Part shown: one piece after another, positions 30,882-64,000 of the stretch
How positions within the stretch are numbered: the first letter of the stretch is position 1
How the letters are laid out: each line of letters opens with the position of its first letter
DNA from: Patescibacteria group bacterium
GTDB lineage: Bacteria > Patescibacteriota > Minisyncoccia > Portnoybacterales > UBA2143
Direction: 5' to 3'
Length of the DNA: 64,000 nucleotides
NCBI GenBank assembly: GCA_018830295.1
Contig: JAHJSM010000001.1
Location: 65,980 to 129,979 of the forward strand
Position numbers and translations under genes: made by a program
The notes under the pieces: generated by a model
Databases searched by the model: none
Told to the model about the DNA's origin: nothing
The model's input: the letters and a program-made list of their open reading frames with translations, nothing else

Positions 30882-32213
30882 ATGCCAAATATAAAACGAC
30901 TAGCCCTCATCTTAGGCGACATCGCCGTTTTGTACTTATCCCTCTGGTTCACCCTCTTTATTCGCTATGGGATTAGTTTTGATTTTCGTATCTGGCAACA
31001 GCACTTTTGGCCATTCACGATTATTTATCTCCTTTGGCTGACCATTTTCTATATCGCTGGCCTCTATGAATTAACTTTAGCCAGAAACAGTATTGATTTC
31101 TATTCCACTCTCTTGCGAGGAATGCTCATTAACATCGGACTCGCGATCGCCTTTTTTTACTTTATCCCATACTTCGGCATCGCCCCCAAAACAAACCTCT
31201 TTATAAATTTAGCCGTTTTCGCCCTGCTCTTTTCCGGCTGGCGGCAGTTATATAATCATTCCGTCAGAACATTCGCCTTCGCAAGCAATGTTTTAATCAT
31301 TGGCAAAAACAAAGAAATTGACCAAACAATCGCGGTTATTAAAAAAAATCCCCAACTGGGCTACAAAGTCATCAAACACATCGGACCCGAAGACATCCAA
31401 ACGCCCTTTGACCTTCTGGAAATGGCGACGCAAAAAAATATTAAAACAATTATCACGGCGATTGACCCCCACAAAAACAACCGATTAGTCCGAAGTTTGT
31501 ATCAATGCCTCCCTTTAAAAATCAGTTTCAGCGACCTGCCTTCTTTTTACGAAAAAATATTAGGCAAAGTGCCTGTTTCCGGCATCGGCGAAATTTGGTT
31601 TTTGGAAAATTTGACCGAGAGCCGAAAAAATTTCTACGAAGCGTTCAAACGCGTTTGCGATATGAGCGGCGCTTGTATCTTTGGCGCGATTAGTTTAATT
31701 TTTTATCCATTTATCGCCTTAGCGATTAAAATCGACAGCAAAGGACCAGTTTTTTATAAACAAATCAGAACAGGACAAGACGGACAAATTTTCAAAGTAA
31801 TCAAATTTCGTTCCATGATTGAAGAAGCGGAAAAAGACGGCGCCCAGTGGGCTGACCAGCAAGACCACCGCATCACGCGCGTCGGCAAGTTTATGAGAAA
31901 AACCCGCCTGGACGAACTGCCTCAATTGTGGAATGTCCTTGTCGGACAAATGAGTTTTATCGGACCCCGCCCCGAAAGAATAGAATTCGCCCAGCAATTG
32001 GAAAAAGAAATTCCCTACTACCAAATCCGCCACATCGTCAAACCGGGCCTAACCGGCTGGGCGCAAGTCAACTTTCGCTACGGCGCCTCCGTCGCAGACA
32101 GCATGGAAAAACTCCAATACGAACTCTACTACATCAAACACCGCTCCCTCGTCTTGGATTTAAGCATTCTTTTAAGAACGATTAAAATTATTTTGGGAGG
32201 ATTGGGAAGATAA
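30882..32213 (+). CDS. initiating polyprenyl-phosphate sugar-phosphate transferase (WbaP/Bac_transf family)
   Basis: 443 aa. N-terminal TM helices are present. The C-terminal GPVFYKQIRTGQDGQIFKVIKFRSM...DELPQLWNVLVGQMSFIGPRPE matches the bacterial sugar transferase domain. Confidence 0.8.
   Translation: MPNIKRLALILGDIAVLYLSLWFTLFIRYGISFDFRIWQQHFWPFTIIYLLWLTIFYIAGLYELTLARNSIDFYSTLLRGMLINIGLAIAFFYFIPYFGIAPKTNLFINLAVFALLFSGWRQLYNHSVRTFAFASNVLIIGKNKEIDQTIAVIKKNPQLGYKVIKHIGPEDIQTPFDLLEMATQKNIKTIITAIDPHKNNRLVRSLYQCLPLKISFSDLPSFYEKILGKVPVSGIGEIWFLENLTESRKNFYEAFKRVCDMSGACIFGAISLIFYPFIALAIKIDSKGPVFYKQIRTGQDGQIFKVIKFRSMIEEAEKDGAQWADQQDHRITRVGKFMRKTRLDELPQLWNVLVGQMSFIGPRPERIEFAQQLEKEIPYYQIRHIVKPGLTGWAQVNFRYGASVADSMEKLQYELYYIKHRSLVLDLSILLRTIKIILGGLGR
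32172..32211. repeat. 40 bp direct repeat, left copy (TTAAGAACGATTAAAATTATTTTGGGAGGATTGGGAAGAT)
   Basis: Identical at all 40 positions to 33598-33637. It encodes the last 13 codons of the PGT gene. Confidence 0.9.
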
Positions 32214-33597
32214 TCCTGTCCCCTAAATACTTGCAACCAAATCTTATTTATTATACTATAAGCAGTATAATAAATGTAATTATTATACTATGGATAATAT
32301 TATAAAAACAATCTTATACGAATGGCGAGAGCATAAACTTCCAAAAATAATTCGCAGAGAAACAGATTTAACAAAATATCTGAATTTAAAAACGCCTAAA
32401 ATTATAACCATAACCGGATTTAGAAGAGTGGGAAAAACTTATTTAATTTTTGATTTAATTGAAGAATTGTTAAAAACTCACCATAAAGAGGAAGTCGTTT
32501 ATATTAATTTTGAAGACGAGAGAATTCCAAGCGATATAAAAGTTCTAACACAATTAATCCCAACAATCAATGAAACATACAACCACACTACTAAATACTT
32601 ATTTTTAGATGAAATACAAAATATTCCAAACTGGAGCCAGTGGGTCAGACGAATTTATGATCAAGAAAATATAAAAATATTTATAACTGGTTCTTCGTCT
32701 AAATTATCATCAAAAGAGATTCCCACTGAATTAAGGGGTCGATGTATTGAAAAAACCATTATGCCATTGTCTTTTAGGGAATTTTTGCTTTTCAAGAACA
32801 TTAAAATAGACCTTGCGTCCCTTCCTTATTTAGACAAAGAAAAATCAAAAACCAATAAAGCATTAGAAGAATATCTTTATTATGGAGGACTGCCCGAAAT
32901 TGTATTAACAAGCAAGGAACATAAATTTGAAATTTTGCAGCAATATTATAAAACGGTGATAAGCCAAGACATAATGGACCGATTTAAAATAAAAAACGAA
33001 ACAATGTTAAAAGCGCTTTTAATGCTTCTTTTGAATTCCACGATTTATTCTATAAGTAAAATATACAAAACACTAAGAAGCGCTGGGCATAAAATAGGTC
33101 CAACCACTGTAATGAAATATATCTCATATATAGAAAATTCTTATTTTTTAAACAATCTTTTTATTTTTTCATACACAGTCAAAGACCGCCTTCAATATCC
33201 TAAAAAAATATATTTTATTGACAACGGTTTTATAAACGCGCTATCTTCAACTTTTTCTAAAAACACCGGGAGATTATTTGAAAATATTGTTTTTAATAAA
33301 ATAAAAAGCGAATTAAAAATTAATGAAGAATTGTTCTATTGGCAAGATAAAAGGCAAAAAGAAGTTGATTTTGTTGTTAAAAAGGGAAACAAAATAATAA
33401 ATTTAATCCAAGTATCGTCTAATTTAGATAATATCGGAACAAAAGAAAGGGAAATAAATAACCTTCTTAAAGCCGATAAAGAATTGAATTGCAATAATTT
33501 AACAATAATTAACAAAGACATAGACAGCAAGGAAAAAATAGGCGGTCAAACAATAAAATTTACTCCGCTTTATAAATTCTTGTTAGAATAAAACAAA
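32212..33597 (+). mobile_element. 1.39 kb insertion carrying a single DUF4143 AAA ATPase gene, bounded by the 40 bp direct repeats
   Basis: Deleting one repeat copy and the intervening segment would give a PGT stop overlapping the GT2 ATG (ATGA), with the GGGAGG Shine-Dalgarno intact. No recombinase gene lies in the segment. Confidence 0.45.
32290..33591 (+). CDS. AAA+ ATPase of the DUF4143/COG1373 family (second copy)
   Basis: 433 aa. Walker A ITGFRRVGKTYLI and Walker B YLFLDEIQ are present. It is divergent from 7993..9204. Confidence 0.6.
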   Translation: MDNIIKTILYEWREHKLPKIIRRETDLTKYLNLKTPKIITITGFRRVGKTYLIFDLIEELLKTHHKEEVVYINFEDERIPSDIKVLTQLIPTINETYNHTTKYLFLDEIQNIPNWSQWVRRIYDQENIKIFITGSSSKLSSKEIPTELRGRCIEKTIMPLSFREFLLFKNIKIDLASLPYLDKEKSKTNKALEEYLYYGGLPEIVLTSKEHKFEILQQYYKTVISQDIMDRFKIKNETMLKALLMLLLNSTIYSISKIYKTLRSAGHKIGPTTVMKYISYIENSYFLNNLFIFSYTVKDRLQYPKKIYFIDNGFINALSSTFSKNTGRLFENIVFNKIKSELKINEELFYWQDKRQKEVDFVVKKGNKIINLIQVSSNLDNIGTKEREINNLLKADKELNCNNLTIINKDIDSKEKIGGQTIKFTPLYKFLLE

Positions 33598-33637
33598 TTA
33601 AGAACGATTAAAATTATTTTGGGAGGATTGGGAAGAT
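33598..33637. repeat. 40 bp direct repeat, right copy
   Basis: Identical to 32172-32211. It supplies the RBS and the first two nucleotides of the GT2 start codon at 33636. Confidence 0.9.
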
Positions 33638-34502
33638 GAAAAAAATATCAGTCGTTATACCAGTTTACAATGAAGCGACAACCGTTGAAAAGGTGATTCA
33701 AGACCTGCGGTTGGTTTTGAGCGCGACTGCTGTTGATTATGAAATCATAGCCGTTGACGACGCCTCAAAAGACCAAAGCGGCGACATTCTTGAACAAATA
33801 AAAGACATTACTGTTATCCGCCATTCCGAAAATCAGGGCTATGGAGCGTCAATCAAAACCGGCGCTAAATCGGCGACCGGCGAATATATTTTGATTATTG
33901 ACGGCGACGCGACCTACCCCACCGAAGCCATTCCACGAATGATTGAACATATTGACCATTACGATCTGGTTTCTGGAGAACGCCGCGGGAAAAACTTTGA
34001 CGCGCGCTGGCTGTATTTGCAAAGAGTCGGAAAATTTGTTTTAAGAATGATTGCCAGTTATATCACACAACATAAAATCCCCGATATCAATTGCGGTTTA
34101 AGAATCTACAGAAAAGAAACATTTGATAAATTCCTATATTTATATCCAAATCAATTTTCCCTCACCACCACTTCATTGGTCGCCTTTTTGTCTAACAACT
34201 ATCGGGTTAAATTTATCCCGATTGATTATCATAAAAGAACTGGCAAATCAACGCTTAAGCCCCTCAAAAGTTTCGGACAATTTATCGGTCTACTTTTGAA
34301 AATTTCCCTTTTCTTCAAACCAATCAGAATTTTTCTACCGTTGAGCATGCTCTTGTTGTTGTCGGCCATATCAATCGCTTTCTATAGTTTATATTTCCAA
34401 GATATTTTTTACGACACAACAACCATTCTTCTCGCGACAACCGCCCTCCAAACCTTTTTCTTCGGCCTCTTGGCTGAAATCATCGTTCATAACCGCAGAT
34501 AA
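33636..34502 (+). CDS. GT2 glycosyltransferase, polyprenyl-phosphate sugar synthase-like (DPM1/GtrB/ArnC type) with C-terminal TM helices
   Basis: 288 aa. ISVVIPVYNEATTVEKV...YEIIAVDDASKDQS is present, with the DxD region at IIDGDATYP and two C-terminal TM segments. Confidence 0.7.
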   Translation: MKKISVVIPVYNEATTVEKVIQDLRLVLSATAVDYEIIAVDDASKDQSGDILEQIKDITVIRHSENQGYGASIKTGAKSATGEYILIIDGDATYPTEAIPRMIEHIDHYDLVSGERRGKNFDARWLYLQRVGKFVLRMIASYITQHKIPDINCGLRIYRKETFDKFLYLYPNQFSLTTTSLVAFLSNNYRVKFIPIDYHKRTGKSTLKPLKSFGQFIGLLLKISLFFKPIRIFLPLSMLLLLSAISIAFYSLYFQDIFYDTTTILLATTALQTFFFGLLAEIIVHNRR

Positions 34503-34507
34503 ACTCC

Positions 34508-35920
34508 ATGAAAATCCTGTTAATTAATCCTCCAACTTTTAATATGCTTCCAACAATGCTTCCCCGCTCTGTTGATGAAGCCCGCGGATACAATCCCCCT
34601 TTGGGGCTTTTATATTTAGCCGCCTATCTGCAAAAAAACAGCGAACACCAGGTTGAGATACTTGACTGCCAGGTGGAAGAATTGAATTACAAACAGATAG
34701 AAGAAAAAATAAAAGAAAACGCCCCAGACGCTATTGGATTAACCACGATGACTTTTACTTTGATTGATGTTCTTAATATCGTTAAAATAGCGAAAAAAAT
34801 AAATCCCGAAATCAAAACAATCTTAGGCGGTCCGCATGTTGATATTTATCCCGAAGAAACAATCAATCAACCCGGTGTTGATTATTTGGTTTTAGGAGAA
34901 GGTGAAAAACCATTAAAGGGCTTGCTGGATAATATAAATTCTCTTAATAATTTACGGCAAGTTAAAGGCGTTGTTTTTAAGGATAATAATAAAATAGTTA
35001 ATACCGGACGAGCTGAATTAAATCAAGATTTAGATTCCCTGCCTTTCCCCGCCCGCCGCTTAACACCCTACCAAAAATATTCTTCTGTTCTAAGCAAAGT
35101 CAGCCCCGTCACAACCATGTTTACTTCGCGAGGATGCCCTTACAAGTGCCTCTTCTGCGACCGCCCTCATTTAGGAAAATTTTTCAGAGCCCGTTCCGCT
35201 AAAAATGTGGTTGATGAAATGGAAGAATGTCAAAAAATGGGCATCAAAGAAATACTTATCTACGACGACACTTTTACCGTCAAACGGCAAAGGGTCATAG
35301 ATATTTGTTTAGAAATTCAAAAAAGAAATTTGAAAATAGATTGGGATGTCCGCGCTAGAGTGGACACAGTAGACAAAGAACTTCTTGAAATAATGAAAGA
35401 TAGCGGCTGCCAAAGAATTCATTATGGCGTAGAAGCGGGCACCCAAAAAATCCTTAATGTTTTAAGAAAAGGAATTACTTTAGAACAGGTTGAAAAAGCA
35501 TTCAAGTTGAGTAGAAAAATCGGACTTGAAACCCTCGCCTATTTTATGATTGGCTCGCCGACCGAGACAAAAGAAGATATTTTAGAAACAATTAAATTTG
35601 CCAAAAAAATTAATCCTGATTTTACCCACATTACCATTACCACCCCCTTCCCCGCCACCGATTTATATCGCATGGGGCTAGAACAAAAGATTTGGCCTAA
35701 TGACCACTGGCAAAAATTCGCCGAACGCCCGCGCGCCGATTTTCTCCCCCCTGTTTGGGAAAAAAATCTGAATAAAGAAGAACTGGTCTCGCTCAACCAA
35801 AAAGCGTATCGCGCTTTTTACTTCCGACCAAAATACCTTCTCAAAAGATTATTTAAACTAACATCCCTTGAGGAATTAAAAAGAAAAAGCAAAGCCGCCT
35901 GGGGAATGCTAAAAATATAA
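34508..35920 (+). CDS. B12-binding-domain radical SAM protein (class B), copy 1
   Basis: 470 aa. An N-terminal Rossmann-like B12-binding region is present (ILLINPP...GLLYLAAYL...ILGGPH). The cluster motif is TSRGCPYKCLFC (C-x3-C-x2-C). Confidence 0.7.
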   Translation: MKILLINPPTFNMLPTMLPRSVDEARGYNPPLGLLYLAAYLQKNSEHQVEILDCQVEELNYKQIEEKIKENAPDAIGLTTMTFTLIDVLNIVKIAKKINPEIKTILGGPHVDIYPEETINQPGVDYLVLGEGEKPLKGLLDNINSLNNLRQVKGVVFKDNNKIVNTGRAELNQDLDSLPFPARRLTPYQKYSSVLSKVSPVTTMFTSRGCPYKCLFCDRPHLGKFFRARSAKNVVDEMEECQKMGIKEILIYDDTFTVKRQRVIDICLEIQKRNLKIDWDVRARVDTVDKELLEIMKDSGCQRIHYGVEAGTQKILNVLRKGITLEQVEKAFKLSRKIGLETLAYFMIGSPTETKEDILETIKFAKKINPDFTHITITTPFPATDLYRMGLEQKIWPNDHWQKFAERPRADFLPPVWEKNLNKEELVSLNQKAYRAFYFRPKYLLKRLFKLTSLEELKRKSKAAWGMLKI

Positions 35921-36861
35921 TGAAAAAATATTCTTTTTTAATCGGCATCATAATTTTTATTTTAATAATCGCCCGATTAGATTTCCGCGAACTGATTATT
36001 GTTTTAAGCGATATCAATTATTTTTATCTTTTTTTAGGGTTTCTGTTGTTGTTTCCTATAATAACGACCAAAGTTTATCGTTGGAATTATTTAATGAAAA
36101 AGCAGAATATTAATTATTCTTTTAAGGAAGCTCTTTTAATGTACGGTTCTGGAATGTATATAGGAATTATTACGCCCGGCCGCGTAGGCGACTTTACCAA
36201 AATCGCTTATTTAAAAAACGACCATTGCTCTTTGGGAAAATCGGCCGTAAGCGTTATTTTAGACCGAGTGTTTGATTTGCTTTTTTTAGCGATATTCGGT
36301 TATCTGGGTCTTTTTTTATTTTTTTCGCTTTTTAAGAATCTTATTTTTATATTAACTTTCATTTTAATTTTTGGTTTAATTTTATTAATTATCTTTTTAA
36401 GGACTGACTCCCATAAAACGCTTCTTAAAAAAATGTTTAATTTAATAGTTCCCGTTAAATATCAAAATTCATGGAGAGTCAATTTACGGGACTTTATTAA
36501 CGGATTAAAGGTTTACAAAGTTTATAATTATCTGTTTGTCTTTTTAATCACTGGTTTTTCTTGGTTGATTTATTATTTCCAAACATTTCTTTTGATTAAA
36601 AGCGTTCATATTAATAACATTTCTTTTCTGTACGCGTCTGTCGCCATAAGCATCGTCGGATTAGCCGGTCTTTTGCCTATTTCAATTTTGGGGGTGGGCA
36701 CCCGAGAAGCTATTTTAATTTTGCTTTTTTCGTTTTTTTCCATTAGTCAGGAAACAACTGTCAGTTTTGCTCTTTTAACCTTATTAATAGCCGTCTCAAC
36801 TGGACTAATCTGCTCTATCTGCTGGTTGATTAAACCTATCCAGTTTTCTAAAATATGTTAA
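35920..36861 (+). CDS. UPF0104 / lysylphosphatidylglycerol-synthase-TM-like flippase-like membrane protein
   Basis: 313 aa with 7-8 TM segments. The architecture is typical of LPG_synthase_TM proteins that accompany GT2 genes. Confidence 0.5.
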   Translation: MKKYSFLIGIIIFILIIARLDFRELIIVLSDINYFYLFLGFLLLFPIITTKVYRWNYLMKKQNINYSFKEALLMYGSGMYIGIITPGRVGDFTKIAYLKNDHCSLGKSAVSVILDRVFDLLFLAIFGYLGLFLFFSLFKNLIFILTFILIFGLILLIIFLRTDSHKTLLKKMFNLIVPVKYQNSWRVNLRDFINGLKVYKVYNYLFVFLITGFSWLIYYFQTFLLIKSVHINNISFLYASVAISIVGLAGLLPISILGVGTREAILILLFSFFSISQETTVSFALLTLLIAVSTGLICSICWLIKPIQFSKIC

Positions 36862-37727
36862 ATAATCTCTCAAAAATACTTTGTTCGAAAGATTATAAAA
36901 TTATAGATGGTGTTTTTGTTTTTGAGAAAGAAAAGATTAAAGAATACAAAATTCTTGAAAAAGCGCCATCCGACAATCCATTTAAATATTCTCTTCATTT
37001 TTGGCTTTATAAGAAATATTTAAGGAATTATTTAAAAGCAAAACCTAATGATTTAATCTTAGACATCGGTTGCGGAATAGGACACTCCTTGGATTATTTA
37101 AGCCGATTTTCAAATAATTTAGTCGGCATAGATACCGACCTGACTTCTCTGCTCTACGCGCGAAAAACAACTCAAGCCAAATATGTTTTAACCAAGGCGG
37201 AAAAACTACCATTCAAAGACAATACTTTCGACAAAATAATCAGTTTTAATGTTTTAGAGCATATTAATAATGACCAAGAAGCCATCAAAGAAATGAGAAG
37301 AGTCGCGAAAAACGGAGCAGAAATATTAATTTGGGTCCCATCTCTTGAAGGACCAAGAACAGATTCAAAATTAAAAAAATTAATGCACGAAGAAGAAAGT
37401 GGCGACGAAAAACATTTCAGAGATGGCTATTATATGAACGACCTTAAAAAACTTTTAATTAAAAATGGTATTGAAGTTATAAAGTCCCGTCATACTATAT
37501 TTCTTTTTGCCGAACTTTTCACGGAACTGACTAAATTTTTTTATTCAAAGAAACAAAAAAAATACCAGCGTCAAACTGATATATTTAATGTCACGGAAAG
37601 CAAACTTTTTGCTTTTTACAAAACAATTATGCCCCTAATAGCGCGAGTCGCGTTATTAGAAGATTTTTTATTTTCTTATTCTAAAAAAGGACATGCCTTG
37701 GTGGTTAAAGGAATAGTTAATAAATAA
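36855..37727 (+). CDS. class I SAM-dependent methyltransferase
   Basis: 290 aa. LDIGCGIGHSL (motif I), FDKIISFNVLEHI and a post-motif region are present. Confidence 0.65.
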   Translation: MLNNLSKILCSKDYKIIDGVFVFEKEKIKEYKILEKAPSDNPFKYSLHFWLYKKYLRNYLKAKPNDLILDIGCGIGHSLDYLSRFSNNLVGIDTDLTSLLYARKTTQAKYVLTKAEKLPFKDNTFDKIISFNVLEHINNDQEAIKEMRRVAKNGAEILIWVPSLEGPRTDSKLKKLMHEEESGDEKHFRDGYYMNDLKKLLIKNGIEVIKSRHTIFLFAELFTELTKFFYSKKQKKYQRQTDIFNVTESKLFAFYKTIMPLIARVALLEDFLFSYSKKGHALVVKGIVNK

Positions 37728-37728
37728 T

Positions 37729-39447
37729 TTACTTAACTAAATTCATTAGCCACCCCTTGTTCGCGGAAACTTCTATTTCTATTGGTTCAATTGAATTAGA
37801 AGCAATACTTATAACATCACTATAATTAGTGATTTTTTTATTTAATTCGTCGCTATATCCTAAAATATATTTCACTCCGAATTTTTCAAAGGCCTCGTTC
37901 AATTTGTTTTCTTCCAATAAATCCTCTACTGTTTTTTCTTGAAACGAAATAAGGGACTTATCTGTCATATAGTTCAAGTTATTTATTTCTGACGGATTTA
38001 AATTAACAGCAATAATATCTTCATCAGAAATATTCATCTTTTCTATCTCTTGAGCGTATGACTTAATTACTAAGTTAGTATTATGGTCATAAATATTATT
38101 CCAAACAACATGACCAACCAAAACAAAATTATACGAAACCAACATCACAATCACCGCATAGACAACAATTAATTTTTTGCCTTTTAATCCAAAATAATTT
38201 GCGATAGCTTCGGATAAAGATAATATTCCTAAGGTAATTAGTAAAGACAAAGCCCAGCCAAAATCCATTAAATGTGACCTGCTCACTAAAACAGCATATG
38301 AGAAAATAAGAATGGAGGAAATAATCCAATAGAAAATAAAATAATACAAATCCTTATTTTTTCTTCTAATCGCGGCTCCACCAATTAAAATTAGAAGAAA
38401 AACAAAAGCGCCGCCAATACCTTCTAATGAAAAGAATTTTGATATGTGTTTTGATAGCATCATTGTTCCAACCATTAATCTGTCAAACGGATTAATGCGG
38501 CCAAAAGCCAAATTGCTCATATTTTTTTTAAAGTATACTTCGCTTGATAAATCAAGTTCATTATTTTCTATTTGATTTTGAATGTTTCCTATAAATTCAT
38601 CAAACTTAAAATGATAGGTGTATGGGTCAGGAAAAAGATGTCCGTATGAAGCAAAATCAGAGGATTTAGTTTCTTCCGATGTCTCCGTAAATAGAAGTTT
38701 TATATTCGTATTTTCTGTCGCGCTCGGCAGCCAAAAAACAGCGAAGATAATTACAAAAGGAATAAGAATATATGTTAGGGCTAATTTTTTTTTGTAAAAC
38801 AATAAATAAAAGAATAAAAACGGAACAATCAATAAAAATGTCTCTTTAGACAATCCAGCTAAAGCCAAAAACACTCCCGAAATAACTAAATAAAAATAAT
38901 TTTTATTTTCGTTTGTCCCTAAAAAGTAAAACAAGAAAAACAAAGATGAAAAGAATAAGGCAAACTCATAATTACCGAAATAATACGGCAATTGCCAATT
39001 AAATGGTATGAAAACATAAATTAGAGAAAAAATTAAAGCTGTTTTAATATTAAATAAATAAAGAACAACTATTGTGAATATTAATAAAGTTAAAGCATGG
39101 ATAATAACAGATAACAACAGAAAACGACTCTCGCTTGGAAAACCCGTAAATTTAAAAACTTCAGCGTAAGAAAAAGAAGTCAGTTTGTTGCCAAATCTTG
39201 AAAGATGTCCTTCTTCTTCAACCAAATTTGAAGAAAGCAACACATTCAAATCATTCTCTATTGAAAAAGAATCAACCAAATAAAGGTTTCTGGCAATCAA
39301 CGCGTTGGGAGAAACAGTGTAAGCCGTATATCCCTTAAATAAAGCTGGAGCGCGCCAAACAACCACTGCCGAAACAAACACGGCCGCCAAAAATAAGCCA
39401 ACAAGTAAAAAATGTTTAATTTTGCTATTTAAAATTTTTTGTGACAT
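37729..39447 (-). CDS. polytopic membrane protein, putative GT-C-fold glycosyltransferase or polymerase
   Basis: 572 aa. There are about 11 TM segments and a C-terminal ~130 aa soluble domain, as in ArnT/PMT-like proteins. Confidence 0.4.
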   Translation of the reverse strand: MSQKILNSKIKHFLLVGLFLAAVFVSAVVVWRAPALFKGYTAYTVSPNALIARNLYLVDSFSIENDLNVLLSSNLVEEEGHLSRFGNKLTSFSYAEVFKFTGFPSESRFLLLSVIIHALTLLIFTIVVLYLFNIKTALIFSLIYVFIPFNWQLPYYFGNYEFALFFSSLFFLFYFLGTNENKNYFYLVISGVFLALAGLSKETFLLIVPFLFFYLLFYKKKLALTYILIPFVIIFAVFWLPSATENTNIKLLFTETSEETKSSDFASYGHLFPDPYTYHFKFDEFIGNIQNQIENNELDLSSEVYFKKNMSNLAFGRINPFDRLMVGTMMLSKHISKFFSLEGIGGAFVFLLILIGGAAIRRKNKDLYYFIFYWIISSILIFSYAVLVSRSHLMDFGWALSLLITLGILSLSEAIANYFGLKGKKLIVVYAVIVMLVSYNFVLVGHVVWNNIYDHNTNLVIKSYAQEIEKMNISDEDIIAVNLNPSEINNLNYMTDKSLISFQEKTVEDLLEENKLNEAFEKFGVKYILGYSDELNKKITNYSDVISIASNSIEPIEIEVSANKGWLMNLVK

Positions 39448-39448
39448 T

Positions 39449-40357
39449 TTATTTTGTCGCTTTCTTTATTCCTTGAACGCGATAATAATCTAAAATTTTG
39501 ACATAAATTATTTTGGGCAAGGGAATAAGCAACTTATCTAAAAAACAAATAATTTCGGTCGTTAAAAACATTATTGGCTTACTAAAAATAAGTTTTTTAA
39601 AAAATAATCTTATCGGATTCTTAGTTTCTTTATATTTAGACTTATATTCAAGTGCTGGGATTTTTTGAGCAAGAATAATAGATGATTGTCCTTTGTTAAA
39701 CATTGTTTTTTGATAACTCTTAAAATTAATTGGATGATTGTGATAAGCGACTGCCTTTTTATTAAAAACTGTTCTCATCCCATTTTTAAATAATCTATAT
39801 CCCAATTCTGAATCTTCGTAGGCGGCATACGGAAATTCTTCGTCAAATAATTCTGTTTTTTCTAAAAATTTTTTACGAATAGAAACATTAGAGGTATAAA
39901 AATATCCCCAATCAACATTGTTTTCATCGTTAATAGACGGATAAGCGAAATGATAATCGGTAATATATTTTCTAAAAGGAGTTATTCTGATTTGAGGCGC
40001 CCATTTAGTATAACCCAAAACTGATATATTCTCATTTGCTGTTCTGTGAATATTAATATGTTCCTCAAGTAAATTTTCTGAAGGAATTATGTCATCTCCT
40101 GTGAAAAAAATAATTTCGTTTTTTGCTTGTTTGATGCCAAGATTTCGAGCGCTGGCAGGACCTTTATTCTGTTGGAAAATATATTTTATTTTGAGAGACA
40201 AATTTATCCCTTTAACAACCTCCTCTGTCCCATCAGTGCTTCCATCGTCCACAATAATAATTTCAAAATTTTTGTATGATTGTCGAGAAAATGCTTTAAG
40301 CGTTTCAATTAAAGTATCTCTTCTATTGTAAGTTGGGATAACTACACTTAATTTCAT
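39449..40357 (-). CDS. GT2 glycosyltransferase
   Basis: 302 aa. LSVVIPTYNRRDTLIETLKAFSRQSYKNFEIIIVDDGSTDGT and a DDI motif are present. Confidence 0.75.
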   Translation of the reverse strand: MKLSVVIPTYNRRDTLIETLKAFSRQSYKNFEIIIVDDGSTDGTEEVVKGINLSLKIKYIFQQNKGPASARNLGIKQAKNEIIFFTGDDIIPSENLLEEHINIHRTANENISVLGYTKWAPQIRITPFRKYITDYHFAYPSINDENNVDWGYFYTSNVSIRKKFLEKTELFDEEFPYAAYEDSELGYRLFKNGMRTVFNKKAVAYHNHPINFKSYQKTMFNKGQSSIILAQKIPALEYKSKYKETKNPIRLFFKKLIFSKPIMFLTTEIICFLDKLLIPLPKIIYVKILDYYRVQGIKKATK

Positions 40358-41442
40358 TAATATTCACCTTTAATAATTTTGAAAATCATTTTTGGGCTTA
40401 AATAAATATTTGGAATTTGGTAGCATGAATGCGCGCAATAACATTCTTTTTTTCTAATTGATTTTCTCATTCTTTTTGCTTCTTCTGATTGCCAGATTTC
40501 AGTCAAATCATAATCAAATTCTCTTAAGTTGCCAATTTTTTTTCTGTTTTCGCAAGGGTAAACATTACCCAAGGCGTCAACCACTGGATAAAAAGCGGAT
40601 ATGCGGCAAGAGATAATTTGCTTTTTTTTTCTCAAAATATCCAAAGATAATCTGTGATAAATCGGAATAATCACTCTTTTATAAAAATTATTTTCGTTTT
40701 TATTTTCTTTTTTTAATATCTCTACAACTTGGGCAAATTTGTTCAAATCCGCTTCCTTTACTTTACTTTGATTATAATCCCCTCTCAATAACTCTAATCC
40801 GCCATAAATATCCGCCTCTGGTAGATTGTTTTCAACATATTTTACTAAATCAACAACTTTATCAATGTTTAAGTTAAAAACCGTCGTACATATTCTTAAT
40901 CTTAATTTTGAATATTTTTTCTTTAATTTAGACAGCCCCCTATAGGTTTCCAAGAATTTTTCAAAATTACCTTCAATTCCCCTAATTTTATCATGGTCCT
41001 TGCCAATGCCATCCAATGACAATCCAATCTTAACTCCGCCCTTAAATCTATTTAATATTTCCTCTGTTTTGGTTAAAATTTTATCAACCGATAAACAGTT
41101 GGTCGGAATAGCCACCATCTTAATATTGTTGTTTCTATTAAAACAACCAACGATTTCCACTAAATCATCCCGTAAAAATGGCTCGCCGCCCCCGATAGTT
41201 ACGGTATGCAAATCACCCAATTTTTTAGTAAATTTTTCTATCTCTTTTAGGGTCAACTCTTTATCTATGTCTTTGTTTAAAATTTTCCAATTAAAACAAG
41301 TAACACAACGAGAATTGCAAACATTAGTTATTTGAAAAATCAAACTATAAAAAGGTTTGGATCTCCCAGGCAAAGACCTCAAAAAAAACTTTATATAATC
41401 TGGATTATTTTTATAAAAACTTAACAATGGTCTAAAATTCAT
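40357..41442 (-). CDS. radical SAM protein with C-terminal SPASM/twitch-like Cys cluster, copy A
   Basis: 361 aa. CNSRCVTCFNW (C-x3-C-x2-C) and IGGGEPFLRDD are present. The C-terminal Cys residues are CRISAF..PCE...CYCAHSC. It shares a start/stop nucleotide with GT2 39449..40357 and overlaps GT2 41432..42421. Confidence 0.65.
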   Translation of the reverse strand: MNFRPLLSFYKNNPDYIKFFLRSLPGRSKPFYSLIFQITNVCNSRCVTCFNWKILNKDIDKELTLKEIEKFTKKLGDLHTVTIGGGEPFLRDDLVEIVGCFNRNNNIKMVAIPTNCLSVDKILTKTEEILNRFKGGVKIGLSLDGIGKDHDKIRGIEGNFEKFLETYRGLSKLKKKYSKLRLRICTTVFNLNIDKVVDLVKYVENNLPEADIYGGLELLRGDYNQSKVKEADLNKFAQVVEILKKENKNENNFYKRVIIPIYHRLSLDILRKKKQIISCRISAFYPVVDALGNVYPCENRKKIGNLREFDYDLTEIWQSEEAKRMRKSIRKKECYCAHSCYQIPNIYLSPKMIFKIIKGEY

Positions 41443-54682: not shown

Positions 54683-54688
54683 AAATAT

Positions 54689-56104
54689 ATGAAAACGCGC
54701 TTGAATGGAAATAAAAAAAACGCAAAAGTTCTTTTAGTCCAACCTAATTATTCCCAGCAAAAAAAATATACGAGATACAGTATTAGTCCGCCATTGGGAC
54801 TGGCGTATATCGCGGCTACTTTGGAAAAAAATGGAATATGTGTTGAAATACTTGACGCTAATGCGTTGAATTTAAGTGTTCAAGATGTTGTCCGGAAAGT
54901 AAAAGAAATTCAAGCCGATATCGTTGGCGTAAGTATTTTAATGACTGGATATAAATACGGCGTAGAAATCGCGAGGAAAATTCCAAAAAATATTTTATCT
55001 GTTTGCGGAGGAGCTTATCCAAGCAGTGTTCCAGAACAAATCATAAAAGATGGCTTTGATATTGCCGTTAAAGGAAGAGGGGAGCAGCCGATGTTGGACT
55101 TGGCTTTAGGCAAAAAAATAGAGGATATTCCTGGTATATATTATCAAAAAGATAAAAAAATAAACCATAATCCTCCGCATGCCGCAAATAACCTTAAATC
55201 AGACCCCTTGCCCTTGCCTGCCAGACATTTATTAATTAATAACGGAGTAAATTTACCCTACCAGTTGGCTGGAACAATGTACTTCCCTTGGTCGCCTATA
55301 TTTACAAGTATCGGATGTCCTTACCAATGTTATTATTGTAGCAAGCAAGTTTTTGATAGATTTATGCCCAGAAGTCCAGAAGATATTTTCAATGAGATAG
55401 AATTTTTAGTAAAACAATATCAAGTAAAAGAAATTGATGTTTATGATGACTGTTTTAATGCCGACATTAATAGAGCCGAAAAAATTCTTGATTTGATTAT
55501 TAAAAGCGGATTAGATATAAAACTACGATTTCCAAATGGAATTAGAGCGAATAATGTTAATGAATTATTCATTAAGAAAATGAAAAAAGCCGGTTGCGTC
55601 GAGATAGCCTACGGTATTGAATCTGGGAATCAAGAGGTCTTAAACAAAATACCAAAAGCGCTCTTATTGGAAGATGTGAGAAAAGCAGTTCAATACACTA
55701 AAAAAGAAAATATTTTAACTATTGGTTTTTTTATTTTAGGTCTCCGCGGAGATAACGAAAAAAGTATGCAAGAAACAATTGATTTTGCTAAAGAACTTAG
55801 CGTAGATGTCCCATTTTTTAGCATCCTTACTCCATATCCAGGAACGCCGCTTTGGAAAACAATTGAAGAAAATGGAGAATTCCTAATTGAAGACTATGAC
55901 GACCTTCATCAAAGCAGCGGAAAAATGATTTTTTCCCATCCTGATTTTCCATCACCCGAGTTGGTTGAAAAAATGTATAAAAAAGCGTATCGCGAAATAT
56001 ATTTTTCATTTAAATATATATTTCAAACTATATCAAAATTAACACGGAAACAATTCGTCTTAGGTGTTAAAGGATTGCCAAGCATAATTAAAAATTCTTT
56101 TTAA
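54689..56104 (+). CDS. B12-binding-domain radical SAM protein, copy 5
   Basis: 471 aa. TSIGCPYQCYYC and CGGAYPS are present. Confidence 0.7.
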   Translation: MKTRLNGNKKNAKVLLVQPNYSQQKKYTRYSISPPLGLAYIAATLEKNGICVEILDANALNLSVQDVVRKVKEIQADIVGVSILMTGYKYGVEIARKIPKNILSVCGGAYPSSVPEQIIKDGFDIAVKGRGEQPMLDLALGKKIEDIPGIYYQKDKKINHNPPHAANNLKSDPLPLPARHLLINNGVNLPYQLAGTMYFPWSPIFTSIGCPYQCYYCSKQVFDRFMPRSPEDIFNEIEFLVKQYQVKEIDVYDDCFNADINRAEKILDLIIKSGLDIKLRFPNGIRANNVNELFIKKMKKAGCVEIAYGIESGNQEVLNKIPKALLLEDVRKAVQYTKKENILTIGFFILGLRGDNEKSMQETIDFAKELSVDVPFFSILTPYPGTPLWKTIEENGEFLIEDYDDLHQSSGKMIFSHPDFPSPELVEKMYKKAYREIYFSFKYIFQTISKLTRKQFVLGVKGLPSIIKNSF

Positions 56105-56110
56105 AAACCA

Positions 56111-57193
56111 ATGAATAAAATTTATTACTTAATTTATCGAATCGGACTTACTTTTAAATATGGTTTCTTATGGAGAAAACCATTCTTTTTAGCAAAAGCG
56201 ATAAAAAATACTCTTCTTCACCGATTAAATTTAAAAAAAACATTTACTTTGCGCTCTTTATGTTTGGCTATCACTTATGCCTGTAATTACAATTGCCCTT
56301 ACTGTCTTACTAGGGAAATGATGAAAAAAAGAGGCAAGGAAGAATTTTTAAAGTTGACTGACTATAAAAGAATCTCCAAAGAAGCAAAAAAAATGGGGGC
56401 TATCTCTTACGCCTTTCAAGGGGGAGAAATTTGGCTTCGTAAAGATTTTAGAGAAATTATTCAGGCCTTTGAACCAAAAAAAAATTACATAACTATTACT
56501 ACTAATGGAACCTTTCTTAATGAAAAAGAAATCCAAAAATTGGTAGATTTGAAAATTGATAAGATATTATTTAGTTTAGAAAGTGGCTTGCCTTATGAAC
56601 ATGATAAGGCAGTCCATCAACCTGGAGCCTACGATGCTATTATGAAGGTCATCAATCTCACCTTAAAGAATAAAATAAAGGTTGGAATTAATTTAACTTT
56701 ATCAAAAAGAAACCTTTATTCTGAAGGATTTAAAAAGCTAATAGAATTTTGCGATCAACAAAAAATACTCTTAAACATTATTTTTGGCTGCGCTTTGGGT
56801 AATTGGAAGAAATATCGAAGCGCAATGTTATCTGAAAAAGATATAGAATATTATAATAAAAATATAGTCCCCCTTTCTCCGTGTCTTAATAGGCATTTAA
56901 ATTTTAATTATAACGGTCATTATGGTTGTCCAGCCGCTAAGGAGATTTTTTATATTAACCCTTGGGGAGATGTCTTAGCTTGTCCTTTTAACCACACATT
57001 TTTTGGCAGCCTCAAAAAAGACTCTTTAAGAAAAATTCATAATCGTGTTTCAAAAATTAAATGGTTTAGTCATTTTCACCCCCGATGTTTAGTCGCCGAA
57101 GAAAAAGCCTTTATGGATGATTATTATCCATCTTTGGGCCAAAGCCAGTACGGCTATATCGACTATACTCACTGGATAAAAAAACAAAAATGA
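56111..57193 (+). CDS. radical SAM protein with C-terminal SPASM/twitch-like Cys cluster, copy B
   Basis: 360 aa. CNYNCPYCL and FQGGEIWLRKD are present. The C-terminal Cys residues are SPCLN...GCPA...ACPF...RCL. Its 3' end overlaps the start of GT2 57190..58158. Confidence 0.65.
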   Translation: MNKIYYLIYRIGLTFKYGFLWRKPFFLAKAIKNTLLHRLNLKKTFTLRSLCLAITYACNYNCPYCLTREMMKKRGKEEFLKLTDYKRISKEAKKMGAISYAFQGGEIWLRKDFREIIQAFEPKKNYITITTNGTFLNEKEIQKLVDLKIDKILFSLESGLPYEHDKAVHQPGAYDAIMKVINLTLKNKIKVGINLTLSKRNLYSEGFKKLIEFCDQQKILLNIIFGCALGNWKKYRSAMLSEKDIEYYNKNIVPLSPCLNRHLNFNYNGHYGCPAAKEIFYINPWGDVLACPFNHTFFGSLKKDSLRKIHNRVSKIKWFSHFHPRCLVAEEKAFMDDYYPSLGQSQYGYIDYTHWIKKQK

Positions 57194-58158
57194 ATAAAAA
57201 AACAACTATTTTAGTGGCTGTTTTTAATAAAAAAGAAACAATTGTAAATTGCGTGGAATCTTTACTGAATCTCGATTCTCCTCCCGCAAGACTTTTATTT
57301 CTTGATGGCGGTTCAACTGATGGAACTTATCAAATTTTAGAAAAGGAATATAAAAATAAGATAGATTTAATCCAACTTCCTATAAGCCATTCTGAAAGAA
57401 TGAATTGGGCGTTAGATAATATTAATACAGAATATACCGCCTTAACGGACGCTGATTGCGTAGTTGAACCGGATTGGCTTACCGAGTTATTGAAAGGATT
57501 TTCTGAAGAAAAAAATATTGTCGCTACTGCCGGTTATTGCGGTACTCCAAAAAAGACTTCATTTCTCCAAAAATTAATCGGGATGGATATGGATAATAGA
57601 TTTGATAACCTTCCTCGTTATTTATGCCGCGCGCCAACTATGAATTTATGTTTTAGAACTGATATAGCGAGAAATGTTAAATTTGATGAAAAACAAAAAG
57701 TAGCGATAGAAACAGATTTTGGATTTAGATTAAGCAAACACGGTAAAATACTTTATGTTCCAAAATCCAAAGTTTGGCATTATCACCGAAGCGACTTAAA
57801 AAGTTATTTTAATCAACAAAAAAATCAGGCCAAATGGGGCCCGAGATTAATTCTTAAACATAAACAGAGAGCTATTTCGGATCCAATTACCGGATTAGGT
57901 ATGACTATCCAAATTCCGCTTTTAATGGCGGGGATTGTTTTTTTGTTTTTATCTTTGTTTAATCAAATATTTATTTATTTTGCTATAGTTTCTTTCTCGA
58001 TTCTTCTTTCAATTTATATAAAAAATATTGTCAAAATAAACCCCTCTCCTCTGTATTACTTAATTTTACCATTTTTCTTTCTTTATCGAACATTTGCTTG
58101 GACAATTGGCGTAATTGAGGGGTCTTTTCTTTTACTTTTAGACAAATCCTTAAGATAA
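57190..58158 (+). CDS. GT2 glycosyltransferase with C-terminal TM helices
   Basis: 322 aa. TILVAVFNKKETIVNCVESL...FLDGGSTDGT, TDADC and two C-terminal TM helices are present. Confidence 0.7.
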   Translation: MNKKTTILVAVFNKKETIVNCVESLLNLDSPPARLLFLDGGSTDGTYQILEKEYKNKIDLIQLPISHSERMNWALDNINTEYTALTDADCVVEPDWLTELLKGFSEEKNIVATAGYCGTPKKTSFLQKLIGMDMDNRFDNLPRYLCRAPTMNLCFRTDIARNVKFDEKQKVAIETDFGFRLSKHGKILYVPKSKVWHYHRSDLKSYFNQQKNQAKWGPRLILKHKQRAISDPITGLGMTIQIPLLMAGIVFLFLSLFNQIFIYFAIVSFSILLSIYIKNIVKINPSPLYYLILPFFFLYRTFAWTIGVIEGSFLLLLDKSLR

Positions 58159-59235
58159 CGGCTTTCTTCTAAAAAAACCTATTAAAATATGAAAAAGGTG
58201 GCGGGGATTAAATAAAGTATTTGAGGTCATAGCGCATTCAAAGGTGCAAAAACATTTGCTTTTTCTTATTTTTTTCCTAACCGTCTCTGATTTTTTAGAA
58301 AACCATAGTTTTTTTAAATTAAAATCAAAATCTTTAAGATTGCCCATTTTGTTACTCAACATTTCACACGGATAAACATCTCCGTTTTCTTTTAAAATCG
58401 CTAATAAATTACCAGCATAACAGGGAGTAATATATTTTTTTTCCGAATATATTCTACTTAAAATCCGCGAACCATAATATTGCCTTGATGAAAGAATTCT
58501 CTCTATCCATGAGGGATTTTTTTTGTAAGTCTTTTCTAAAAAATCATTCCTTAATTTAAACATAATGTTGTCATAATGTTTTATATCCAACTCTTTTAAG
58601 GACATATCCCTAACCTCTGAACGAATTATGTTTACCCCAACATTCTCAACGCCTAAATCTTTCTCCAAAAAATCAACTATTTCCCCTACTTCTTCTTGAT
58701 TATCTTTGGTAATAGTAACTATATTGCCAAGGCGAAAGTTACTAAATTCTTTTTCTAACTCTTTAAGTTTTTTTATTGTTTTTACCGCTTTTTCAAAACA
58801 ACCGTCAACCTGCCTGATTTGATTATGTTTTTCTCCTAAATTATCTATGGAAATGCCAACAGCAACCCTGATATCTTTGCGACAAACTTCCAAAATATTT
58901 TTAGTTGTCCTAAATATACGGTCTGTTAAAATTCCATTCGTCGGTATTTGGAGATTAGCTACTTTAGTAAACCGACTAAAAATAGAAGCCACTTCAACTA
59001 AGTTATCCCTTAAAAATGGTTCTCCCCCAGTTAAAGTAACTGTGAGAAGGTCGGGCGCGCTTTTCGCGACTTTTTCTATTTCAAGCAAACTTAACTCATC
59101 TTTAATTGTATTAATTTTTTGCCAATAAAAACAATGCCTGCATTTGGCGTTGCATTTGGAAGTAACAAAAAATATTAAATTAAGCGGCATCCCTCGTTTT
59201 ATAAAAACACGAGAAATTTGTTTTAATAGACACAT
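58150..59235 (-). CDS. radical SAM protein with C-terminal SPASM/twitch-like Cys cluster, copy C (close paralog of copy A)
   Basis: 361 aa. CNAKCRHCFYW, LTGGEPFLRDN and the C-terminal PCYAG...PCE...CFCTFEC are present. It is collinear with 40357..41442 throughout. Confidence 0.65.
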   Translation of the reverse strand: MCLLKQISRVFIKRGMPLNLIFFVTSKCNAKCRHCFYWQKINTIKDELSLLEIEKVAKSAPDLLTVTLTGGEPFLRDNLVEVASIFSRFTKVANLQIPTNGILTDRIFRTTKNILEVCRKDIRVAVGISIDNLGEKHNQIRQVDGCFEKAVKTIKKLKELEKEFSNFRLGNIVTITKDNQEEVGEIVDFLEKDLGVENVGVNIIRSEVRDMSLKELDIKHYDNIMFKLRNDFLEKTYKKNPSWIERILSSRQYYGSRILSRIYSEKKYITPCYAGNLLAILKENGDVYPCEMLSNKMGNLKDFDFNLKKLWFSKKSETVRKKIRKSKCFCTFECAMTSNTLFNPRHLFHILIGFFRRKPLS

Positions 59236-59239
59236 ATAA

Positions 59240-60253
59240 TTAATTTTTTATTTTGAAATATATTTGAAAATAAAGCCCGCAGACAGCGGCAAAAAACATT
59301 TCAATTGCGGAAAACAACACAGACAAAACAGCAAAAAAAACGCCCTTTCTTCTCTTGAAATATTTAAAAAACTCTGTTTGAACCCAAAAAAACATTAAAA
59401 CCGAAAATAAAAAACCGAAAATAAAAAACCAGTAGATAAATGATAAAATAAGAAAGATAGATGCCAAAATTATTGGATACAGCGATTTGCCTGAAGATGA
59501 TTTAGACATATTTAAATATGTCTTCCGAAGTTCCTTCTCTTGGATAATTCTAACAATACTCCCTATTCTTAAACAATTCGTCCTTAAAAGAGATTTTAGA
59601 TTGTGTTTTTTATGATGCTCCCCTTTTATTCTGTTATCTTGTAAAATCTTTTTATTTTCATTTAAAGACAATCTTAAAGTAAATTCTATGTCTTCCGCCG
59701 TCGCCCCAAGATAATTCTCATTAAATCCGTTCGCTTTAAAAAACATTTCTCTGGGTATAGCTAATATGGCCGAATCGGCGGCAAAATTAAATTTTGAAGC
59801 AATTTTTTTCCCTAAACACATGTACAAATGCTTGTAGGTGCTGAAAAAATCGCTGAAAACTATTCTTTCGTCATAAACACCGGAAACTCCGCATACATCA
59901 AATGATTTAAAATCATCTTTGATATGTTTAATAATATCCCTGGAAGACAAAACAATATCGCTATCAACAAAAAGCAATATCTCGCCTTTTGCATTTTTAG
60001 CGCCTAAATTGCGAGTAGCGGCAACTCCCTTGTTCACTGGGTTAGAAACAACTTTAACTCCATGTTTTTTGGCGATTAGAACGGAAGTATCAACTGAAGC
60101 GTCATTGGCTACAATTAGTTCGCATTTTTCAAAATCTTTTATTTTAGTTATTGCCTCCAAGCATTTATCTAAAGTCTTCTCGCCGTTAAAGACAGGAACA
60201 ATAATAGATAAAAAGATTGATGGCCTTTCTTTGTCTGTCATAAAATTACTCAA
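59240..60253 (-). CDS. GT2 glycosyltransferase with C-terminal TM helices
   Basis: 337 aa. LSIIVPVFNGEKTLDKCLEAI...ELIVANDASVDTS, VDSD and C-terminal TM helices are present. Confidence 0.7.
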   Translation of the reverse strand: MSNFMTDKERPSIFLSIIVPVFNGEKTLDKCLEAITKIKDFEKCELIVANDASVDTSVLIAKKHGVKVVSNPVNKGVAATRNLGAKNAKGEILLFVDSDIVLSSRDIIKHIKDDFKSFDVCGVSGVYDERIVFSDFFSTYKHLYMCLGKKIASKFNFAADSAILAIPREMFFKANGFNENYLGATAEDIEFTLRLSLNENKKILQDNRIKGEHHKKHNLKSLLRTNCLRIGSIVRIIQEKELRKTYLNMSKSSSGKSLYPIILASIFLILSFIYWFFIFGFLFSVLMFFWVQTEFFKYFKRRKGVFFAVLSVLFSAIEMFFAAVCGLYFQIYFKIKN

Positions 60254-60287
60254 AAAAATTATTCATTTATCGATTTTTTAAAAATCT

Positions 60288-61397
60288 TTAAATCTTGAAA
60301 TCATAAACCTGAATATATTGTTCAACCATATTAGGCCAATCCATTTTTTGGGCCTGCTTCAATCCATTTTGACTTAATTTTTCAGCTAAACTTGGATTAT
60401 CTAAAATATTTAAAATAGCTTGGCTAGTTTTTTCTATATCATTTTGAGGAACCAATAATCCATTAAACCCATCTATAATTGCATCTTCGGCGCCACAACC
60501 ATAAGTACCAATAACTGGTTTCCCGCAAGCATTGGCTTCCAAATAAACTAAACCAAATCCTTCAAAATTATTATCAATATTCACGGGTGTAAGTAGAAAC
60601 AAATCTGCTTGATGATAAAGTTTTAATAATTTTCGTTCTGAAATGTTTTGCAAAAAAACTATATTATCCTCTAAATTATATTTTTTAACCAAATCTTTAA
60701 GTTGAGAAAAATATTTTTTGTTCTTTTGGTTTCCGACAATGTAATATTTTAAATTTGAGTATTTTTTTACAACTTTTCCAACGGCTGAAATGGCAATATA
60801 GTATCCCTTGCGAAAAACTAATGCCCCAACGCTAATAATTTTTTTATTATTATTTTTTGTTTTTCTTTCGTCTTGATACATTCGGAACTTTTTATAATCA
60901 ATACCATTATTAATAACTATAGTATTATCAACTTGAACTTTTTTTAAGAATACTTGTTGAGTAAATCTGCTAACACAAATTATTTTTTTAGCATTTTTAT
61001 AAACCCTCTTGTACAATCCCCTTAAATACCACTTATTTAAGGCATCTACGGCATAAGTTCCATGTAAAGTGATTAACGTTGGACGCTTCCGACATGTCCA
61101 ATAAGAGATTAGACTATACGGTTCAGCTAAAATATGAACCATGTCCGCCGATTGGATAAATTTCCTAATTTGATAAAAATTCTTTATTAAAAAATATATT
61201 TTTATCCAACGACTAACAAATAATGGAGGTAGAATTTTATAATCCTTAATTGAAGATAAGTCATTTTGCTGGCTTCGCGTTGACGACAAAACCAAACAAT
61301 CAACACCTTGTTTTGACAAATGTTCAATTAAATTAACTGCGTAACTCCCCCATCCATCCCTAGAAGATAATTGATTAACCAAAAAACAAATTTTCAT
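60288..61397 (-). CDS. GT4-family (GT-B fold) glycosyltransferase
   Basis: 369 aa. EGFGLVYLEANACGKPVIGTYGCGAEDAI contains the E-x7-E motif region. Confidence 0.7.
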   Translation of the reverse strand: MKICFLVNQLSSRDGWGSYAVNLIEHLSKQGVDCLVLSSTRSQQNDLSSIKDYKILPPLFVSRWIKIYFLIKNFYQIRKFIQSADMVHILAEPYSLISYWTCRKRPTLITLHGTYAVDALNKWYLRGLYKRVYKNAKKIICVSRFTQQVFLKKVQVDNTIVINNGIDYKKFRMYQDERKTKNNNKKIISVGALVFRKGYYIAISAVGKVVKKYSNLKYYIVGNQKNKKYFSQLKDLVKKYNLEDNIVFLQNISERKLLKLYHQADLFLLTPVNIDNNFEGFGLVYLEANACGKPVIGTYGCGAEDAIIDGFNGLLVPQNDIEKTSQAILNILDNPSLAEKLSQNGLKQAQKMDWPNMVEQYIQVYDFKI

Positions 61398-62776
61398 AAT
61401 TGTTTAGCTAAACGATAAACCGGCTTCCCTATTTTGTAAAGCAAGGGCGTTGAAATAATAAATTTTTTAATACTTCTCATTTTTTCTTGAATAGCCCTTT
61501 TAACATTATACTGCCTATAAACATTATATTCAAAATTCCTGACCGCCTTTTTTATTTGATTAGAACTCAAACCAGGCAGTTCTAAAACCGACTCATCCAT
61601 ATAAGAATCAATATGATCTTTAGTGATTAACCCTTGTTCAATACATTTTTGACCCAATAGTGTTTCAGGGTAAGGATAAAAAGCAGTTACTTGCATAAAA
61701 TCAGGCTTAATTTTAGCATTTAAATTAATTGTTTCTTGAATAGTTTTTTTAGTTTCTCCGGGAATGCCAATCATATTAAAAGAAAAAGTTAAAATACCAA
61801 TCTCTTTGGCCAAATTAAACAATTCAATGACTTGATTATTAGAAATATTCCTTCCTAAAATCTTCTTTCTTAATTTTTCATTGCCCGTTTCTAAACCAAC
61901 TTTGATTAGATTACAACCTGCTTTTTTTAAAGCCACTAAAGTTTCTTTGTCAACCGCGCCAATTCTAACATTACATTCAAAACTCATATTAAACTCTTTT
62001 GAATATTTATGACAGAATTCTAAAACCCAATTCTTATTCAAAGAAAAAGTATCATCATCAATTTTAAAATGTTTAAAATTATATTGCTTCTTCAAATCCC
62101 TAATTTGTTCAATAGCCCAATCAACGCTCATAAATCTTAAATACCGACCATGTCCAAAATAAATTTTCTTAAAAACATGATTACAACAATAAGTACAGTT
62201 AAAAGGGCATCCACGGGAAAATATAAAACGGGGAGTAATCTCTTTTTGACCGGCATTTTTAAAATATTTAAAAATAGAATAATCAGGAAAGGGTAATTGA
62301 TCTAAATCAATCAACAAAGGACCAATTCTATTCTTAATAACCTTGCCCTGTCGTTTAAACCAAAAATTGTTAATGTCAGTATAGTCCTGTTTTTGCTCAA
62401 TTCGTCTAACTAATTCTAAAAGAGAATCTTCCGCCTCACCAATACAGATACCGTCAAAGCTTTCTTCCTTAATTACTTCTTCTGGTCTAATAGTAGCATG
62501 AACTCCTCCTAAAAATATTGCAATATCAAACTCTGATTTGATTCTTTTAGCTATCTCAACTGCGTGAATATATTGATGAGAATTTACTGATAAACAAATA
62601 ATTTGCGGCTGATACGATTCAACAAAAGAATTGATCTGATCAATTTCTTTTTTGTCTTCTATTTCCAACAACTCAATCTGATACCCATCTTTTTTTAAAA
62701 CAGCCGAAAGAAAAGATACTCCAACCAACCACTTCGCTTGTGAGCCAATTTTAGGAACAATAAATAAGACTTTCAT
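61394..62776 (-). CDS. B12-binding-domain radical SAM protein, copy 6
   Basis: 460 aa. FSRGCPFNCTYC and LGGVHAT are present. Confidence 0.7.
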   Translation of the reverse strand: MKVLFIVPKIGSQAKWLVGVSFLSAVLKKDGYQIELLEIEDKKEIDQINSFVESYQPQIICLSVNSHQYIHAVEIAKRIKSEFDIAIFLGGVHATIRPEEVIKEESFDGICIGEAEDSLLELVRRIEQKQDYTDINNFWFKRQGKVIKNRIGPLLIDLDQLPFPDYSIFKYFKNAGQKEITPRFIFSRGCPFNCTYCCNHVFKKIYFGHGRYLRFMSVDWAIEQIRDLKKQYNFKHFKIDDDTFSLNKNWVLEFCHKYSKEFNMSFECNVRIGAVDKETLVALKKAGCNLIKVGLETGNEKLRKKILGRNISNNQVIELFNLAKEIGILTFSFNMIGIPGETKKTIQETINLNAKIKPDFMQVTAFYPYPETLLGQKCIEQGLITKDHIDSYMDESVLELPGLSSNQIKKAVRNFEYNVYRQYNVKRAIQEKMRSIKKFIISTPLLYKIGKPVYRLAKQL

Positions 62777-62833
62777 AATAGGGTTAAATAAATACGTTAA
62801 AAGAATTAGAGAATAAAAAAATTATTAATTTTA

Positions 62834-64000
62834 TCATTTTAATTTAAAAACTTTAAATTCATTAATTTCATAAATTTGCTCAAAAAATGAATATTGCTCA
62901 ATCTTCCATTGAGGATATTTTAAAGTATCCCAAAGTAAATAATCTGTCTGATATTTTCTCAAGATATTCTCCAAAGGAATAGCCAAAAATTCTCTATATT
63001 TATCAACAAAAAAATAAAGTTTTTCATCTGGAATTAATTCATAACCACCCATTCGCTTTCGATAATATTCACCATAAACCTTTAAAGAAAGATCTGCTTT
63101 ATTTTCAAAAAAATATTTATATAAAATCTCGTCATTTCCTTTTAACCCATTAAAGCGAAGTATTAGAAATATTCTTTCTAATAATTGTTTTTCATCAGCT
63201 GCTAACGAATGACGCCCATCCTCACAATTAACTACATTAAGTGGAGTATAAGTAGCAATTGAATAAGAATTAATTTCATCTCCCACAATTACTTGATCTT
63301 TTTGAGTATTATTACGCAACCATTCAAAAATTGGTCCATAGCGCTGATTCTCAATGGCTATAGGTTTTTGACGATCATAAAGAGAAACTTGAAGCACCCA
63401 AGCATTATAAAAATTAATAAATAAAATCAATATAATCAAACTTAACCAGCTTATTTTTTTTAAAAAAGAATTATTAATTTTCTTTTCAAGCAATTCAAAA
63501 ACAATTATTATAATAAAAATAATCGCTAAGGGACTATGAAAATACCAATGATAATGATCTGGAATCATAATCATTCCAGTAATAATCTGTTGATTAAGAA
63601 CAACAAAAGGCGTTAAAATAAGACTTAGGCAAAAATAATATCTATCTTTCCACTCTCGTGAAAAAAACAATAAAAAAACAGCTAAAAGAATTAGGACCAA
63701 TGCTCCCACCTGAGGAGAATGTGTTTTCATTAAACCAAAACGAGAAGCTACCTCTGAATACAATGGATGCTGCATCGCTTGCCATAAATTCCAAAAATAA
63801 GGAATAGCTATTAATAAAGCAATAAAAGCGATCAAAATAATATCTTTAATTTTAGTCCATTCTTTCTTCCAAAGAAAAATAAGTATCAAACAGCCAAGGA
63901 ATGCAAAAATAAATGTCCAAGTATAAGGATATTCGTAAAAAGAAAGACCCAAAAGAACACCACTAGAAATACCATAAATCCATTGTCTTTTTTGTAAAAA
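62834..64000 (-). CDS. polytopic membrane protein with C-terminal soluble domain, putative GT-C-like (5' end runs off the window)
   Basis: The frame stays open to position 64000, and the first in-window start is TTG at 63952. About 9 TM segments are followed by a ~170 aa soluble domain. Confidence 0.4.
   Translation of the reverse strand, partial: FLQKRQWIYGISSGVLLGLSFYEYPYTWTFIFAFLGCLILIFLWKKEWTKIKDIILIAFIALLIAIPYFWNLWQAMQHPLYSEVASRFGLMKTHSPQVGALVLILLAVFLLFFSREWKDRYYFCLSLILTPFVVLNQQIITGMIMIPDHYHWYFHSPLAIIFIIIIVFELLEKKINNSFLKKISWLSLIILILFINFYNAWVLQVSLYDRQKPIAIENQRYGPIFEWLRNNTQKDQVIVGDEINSYSIATYTPLNVVNCEDGRHSLAADEKQLLERIFLILRFNGLKGNDEILYKYFFENKADLSLKVYGEYYRKRMGGYELIPDEKLYFFVDKYREFLAIPLENILRKYQTDYLLWDTLKYPQWKIEQYSFFEQIYEINEFKVFKLK

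Follow-up and report, generated by a model that had tools for sequence, protein, structure and literature searches.

A putative modular surface-glycan locus carrying nine radical SAM enzymes in a member of the Patescibacteria

Why would a bacterium with a tiny genome, belonging to the candidate phyla radiation, place nine radical SAM enzymes among its glycan genes? The host is a member of the Patescibacteria (Parcubacteria/Portnoybacteria-like), which agrees with the CPR-like organism that the initial annotation had considered as a condition: proteins matching exactly bear the names Patescibacteria or Parcubacteria, and members of their 90% clusters the name Portnoybacteria. In the part of the window (the whole 64,000-nucleotide stretch of DNA analysed) between positions 30882 and 64000, 11,760 of 33,119 nt, about a third, belong to radical SAM genes, and the genes are tightly packed into four operon-like blocks with intergenic gaps of -41 to +76 nt. 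This density and packing are far beyond chance. The best reading is a modular surface-glycan locus. Pfam and NCBIfam scans support the earlier proposal of a surface-glycan or glycolipid locus, placing all nine radical SAM genes at the positions first assigned and recovering the six GT2 and one GT4 glycosyltransferases, the Wzx flippase, the UPF0104 protein and the two methyltransferases (Table 1).

Table 1. Genes of the locus in window coordinates, with the matches (in bits) behind each assignment
Feature	Coordinates	Strand	Protein	Evidence or remark
Polyprenyl-phosphate glycosylphosphotransferase (Bac_transf), initiating	30882..32213	+	443 aa, about 5 TM	PF02397 222
AAA_14/DUF4143 ATPase	32290..33591	+		PF13173 132, PF13635 79.6
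GT2a, polyprenyl-phosphate-sugar-synthase-like	33636..34502	+	288 aa, 2 C-terminal TM	PF00535 115
B12_1, class B (B12-binding domain) radical SAM	34508..35920	+	470 aa	PF02310 104, PF04055 98.9
UPF0104/LPG_synthase_TM flippase-like membrane protein	35920..36861	+		PF03706 138
MT1, class I SAM methyltransferase	36855..37727	+		PF08241 76.4
GT-C-like polytopic membrane protein	37729..39447	-	572 aa, at least 8 TM	PF13231 PMT_2 23.4
GT2b	39449..40357	-		PF00535 111.5
SPASM1, radical SAM, SPASM/twitch-type C-terminal domain	40357..41442	-	361 aa	PF04055 62.4, PF13186 36.3
GT2c	41432..42421	-		PF00535 102.3
Wzx-type MOP flippase	42381..43700	-	439 aa, about 9+ TM	PF13440 65.4, PF01943 60.5
GT-C (GT39/PMT-like) membrane glycosyltransferase	43714..45735	-	673 aa, about 13 TM	divergent from GT2d
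GT2d, PpgS/GacI-like polyprenyl-phosphate-sugar synthase candidate	45805..46488	+	227 aa, soluble	PF00535 105
DUF2304 protein (GacJ/Rv3632 family), GT2d partner	46493..46825	+	small, 3 TM	PF10066 72.5 (cut-off 25.5)
B12_2, HpnJ-like class B radical SAM	46822..48255	+	477 aa	TIGR03471 HpnJ 435 (cut-off 577.6)
HddC-GmhB fusion, sugar-1-phosphate nucleotidyltransferase + heptose-bisphosphate phosphatase	48252..49541	+		PF00483 118 + HAD
HddA-like GHMP kinase, heptose-7-phosphate 1-kinase candidate	49538..50512	+		GHMP_kinases_N + GHMP_kinases_C
B12_3, class B radical SAM, between HddA and GmhA	50534..51955	+	473 aa	PF02310 73.4, PF04055 93.9
GmhA-like SIS isomerase, sedoheptulose-7-phosphate isomerase candidate	51977..52564	+		PF13580, PF01380
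MT2, class I SAM methyltransferase	52557..53243	+		PF08241 77.1
B12_4, class B radical SAM	53246..54682	+	478 aa	PF02310 69.2, PF04055 93.3
B12_5, class B radical SAM	54689..56104	+	471 aa	PF02310 68.9, PF04055 71.8
SPASM2, radical SAM, twitch/SPASM-like C-terminus, MoaA-like core	56111..57193	+	360 aa	PF04055 74.4, PF13186 23.7
GT2e, membrane-anchored	57190..58158	+	322 aa, 2 C-terminal TM	PF00535 73.5, PF13632 38.3
SPASM3, radical SAM, SPASM/twitch-type C-terminus	58150..59235	-	361 aa	PF04055 66.6, PF13186 22.0
GT2f	59240..60253	-		PF00535 83.8
GT4	60288..61397	-		PF00534 136, PF13439 71.5
B12_6, class B radical SAM	61394..62776	-	460 aa	PF02310 59.4, PF04055 92
Polytopic membrane protein, C-terminal part	62834..64000	-	579 aa at full length	cut by window end

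The locus is real, but it is larger than the single unit of about 33 kb first described: it carries on for at least 8.5 kb beyond position 64000, so its size is at least about 42 kb. In L169-L171, which hold the full gene for the truncated membrane protein (about 10-11 TM), this gene is followed by three methyltransferases, an AsnB-like amidotransferase, a GT2, a GT4 and two further methyltransferases. The protein has no Pfam or NCBIfam match, and its one strong homologue (432 bits) lies in a Nealsonbacteria MAG (L012), within a cluster that packs eight genes for B12 radical SAM enzymes into 15 kb; the sole further match is marginal (21 bits, in L016). Only two of the three membrane proteins initially called GT-C-like show that affinity. 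The match at 37729 falls slightly under the PMT_2 cut-off of 26.1 bits, and the protein at 43714 matches just PMT_2 (16.4 bits), although its homologues (40-50% identity) bear PF13231/PF02366 and are named GT39. The L012 cluster also shows that loci of this sort are not unique, related ones having up to eight B12 radical SAM genes. Literature searches yielded no description of one.

All nine radical SAM proteins contain one intact CxxxCxxC motif, for example CPYKCLFC (B12_1, residue 210), CPYQCYYC (B12_5, residue 210), CPFNCTYC (B12_6, residue 190), CNSRCVTC (SPASM1, residue 42) and CNAKCRHC (SPASM3, residue 28). In the six larger proteins (460-478 aa), the proposed B12-binding domain was found throughout, with PF02310 at 57.7-104 bits (Pfam cut-off 32.1) and PF04055 at 71.8-98.9 bits (cut-off 29.5). 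By the criteria of PMC9204698, these six enzymes, B12_1 included, also show the base-off GG and GE motifs, and they may depend on cobalamin. The need to scavenge corrinoids from a host is a prediction of the initial annotation, and no corrinoid gene or riboswitch was found within the 64-kb window. The six share only 26-38% identity (B12_4 and B12_6, 38%) and are old rather than recent paralogues. The three smaller proteins, of about 360 aa, each combine PF04055 with a SPASM domain (PF13186, cut-off 21.5 bits). SPASM1 and SPASM3 are 34% identical and each has five C-terminal cysteines, arranged in SPASM1 as C279-x17-C297 ... C334xC336x3C340.

B12_2 is the conserved core of the locus. It is 36% identical over its full length to annotated HpnJ, and 57% identical to LI_RS06575, encoded on a Lawsonia intracellularis plasmid. 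Its orthologous group spans many phyla at 50-85% identity, with hosts in Parcubacteria, Nealsonbacteria, Chloroflexi, Dehalococcoidia and Thermodesulfobacteriota in addition to that plasmid. The AF2 model of B12_2 (pLDDT 90.6) finds its best PDB matches in AprD4, OxsB, TsrM, MgmA, CysS and TokK. Of these, AprD4, an enzyme not known to need cobalamin, is the nearest solved structure by fold, which calls for caution on cobalamin use by the six enzymes.

A GT2 gene adjoins B12_2 orthologues in nearly all cases, and heptose genes are often interleaved. Beside these orthologues, the GT2d type co-occurs with heptose genes (17/25 loci versus 3/28; Fisher p = 2e-5). The top NCBIfam match of GT2d is PpgS (123.5 bits, under the 370 cut-off), and its DUF2304 neighbour belongs with GacJ and Rv3632, which stimulate their GT2 polyprenyl-phosphate-sugar synthases (bioRxiv 10.1101/180810). 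The same divergent GT-C layout against GT2-DUF2304-B12_2 recurs in L088 and L093. Where B12_2 orthologues lack heptose genes, they most often adjoin a GT2 of the GT2e-like type, as in Dehalococcoidia-type MT-GT2-B12_2 loci; SPASM2 homologues adjoin B12_2 orthologues at several loci.

The four activities of the proposed heptose pathway (GmhA, HddA, HddC and GmhB candidates) were recovered, which supports a heptose-nucleotide route. The fusion protein passes the GmhB model (TIGR00213, 151 bits; cut-off 149.6) and scores 99.5 bits, under 300, with the HddC model. The kinase and isomerase have HddA (157 bits; cut-off 600) and TIGR00441 (121 bits; cut-off 209) as their top matches. Fusion and kinase are 43% and 47% identical to their Lawsonia plasmid counterparts. 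The suggestion that the radical SAM enzymes are wired to this pathway narrows to the B12_2 family, the only one with a link to heptose genes and a PpgS/GacI-like GT2 that is conserved across phyla.

Those from B12_3 to B12_6 sit in variable modules. B12_3 matches BchE (249 bits) and HpnJ (234 bits), both under cut-off, and among species-representative genomes its nearest relatives do not exceed 41% identity; a homologue in an Elusimicrobia MAG (L062) adjoins HddA-HddC. The order MT2-B12_4-(SPASM2)-GT2e, with MT2 orthologues upstream, is retained around the B12_4 orthologues of L090 (807 bits) and L096 (631 bits). The top matches of SPASM2 (MoaA, 85 bits) and GT2b (EpsD, 193.8 bits) are under cut-off.

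B12_1 belongs to a second recurrent cassette, GT2-(deacetylase)-B12 enzyme-flippase-like protein, plus a GT-C. Identity to its orthologues is 63-93% for those of Portnoybacteria and Buchananbacteria, 74% for one from a record labelled Deltaproteobacteria DG_8 and 65% for one from a Nanoarchaeota (DPANN) MAG. In 5/5 foreign contexts the orthologue is preceded by a GT2 of 286-294 aa; the best matches of GT2a itself (AglJ, dolichyl-phosphate hexose transferase, ArnC) are all under cut-off. A UPF0104/LPG_synthase_TM gene, which here passes the flippase-like model TIGR00374 (90.8 bits; cut-off 43.2), follows the orthologues in L174, L175 and L176, an MT1 orthologue lies downstream of LPG_synthase_TM in L091, and PMT_2 proteins flank the cassette in L174 and L176. 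The cassette mirrors hpnI-hpnJ-hpnK-LPG-synthase-domain gene, and in Mycetohabitans a UPF0104/LPG_synthase_TM gene follows hpnK.

The initiating transferase, first called WbaP-type, scores above the cut-off of the general family model (TIGR03025, 377.5 bits; cut-off 295.6) and under those of the WbaP and WcaJ models. In L174 and L175 an orthologue of it directly precedes the GT2-B12_1 cassette. The AAA_14 ATPase gene, overlooked initially, is probably an unrelated insertion between phosphotransferase and GT2a. It is not present at this junction in L174 and L175, and a second, 29% identical copy lies at 7993-9204.

We infer that the radical SAM enzymes act on the sugars of this locus, and suggest that they would remodel polyprenyl-phosphate-linked (or GDP-linked) sugars ahead of GT-C transfer. 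The B12_1 and B12_2 families are widespread and unstudied, and both sit beside enzymes making lipid-carried sugars.

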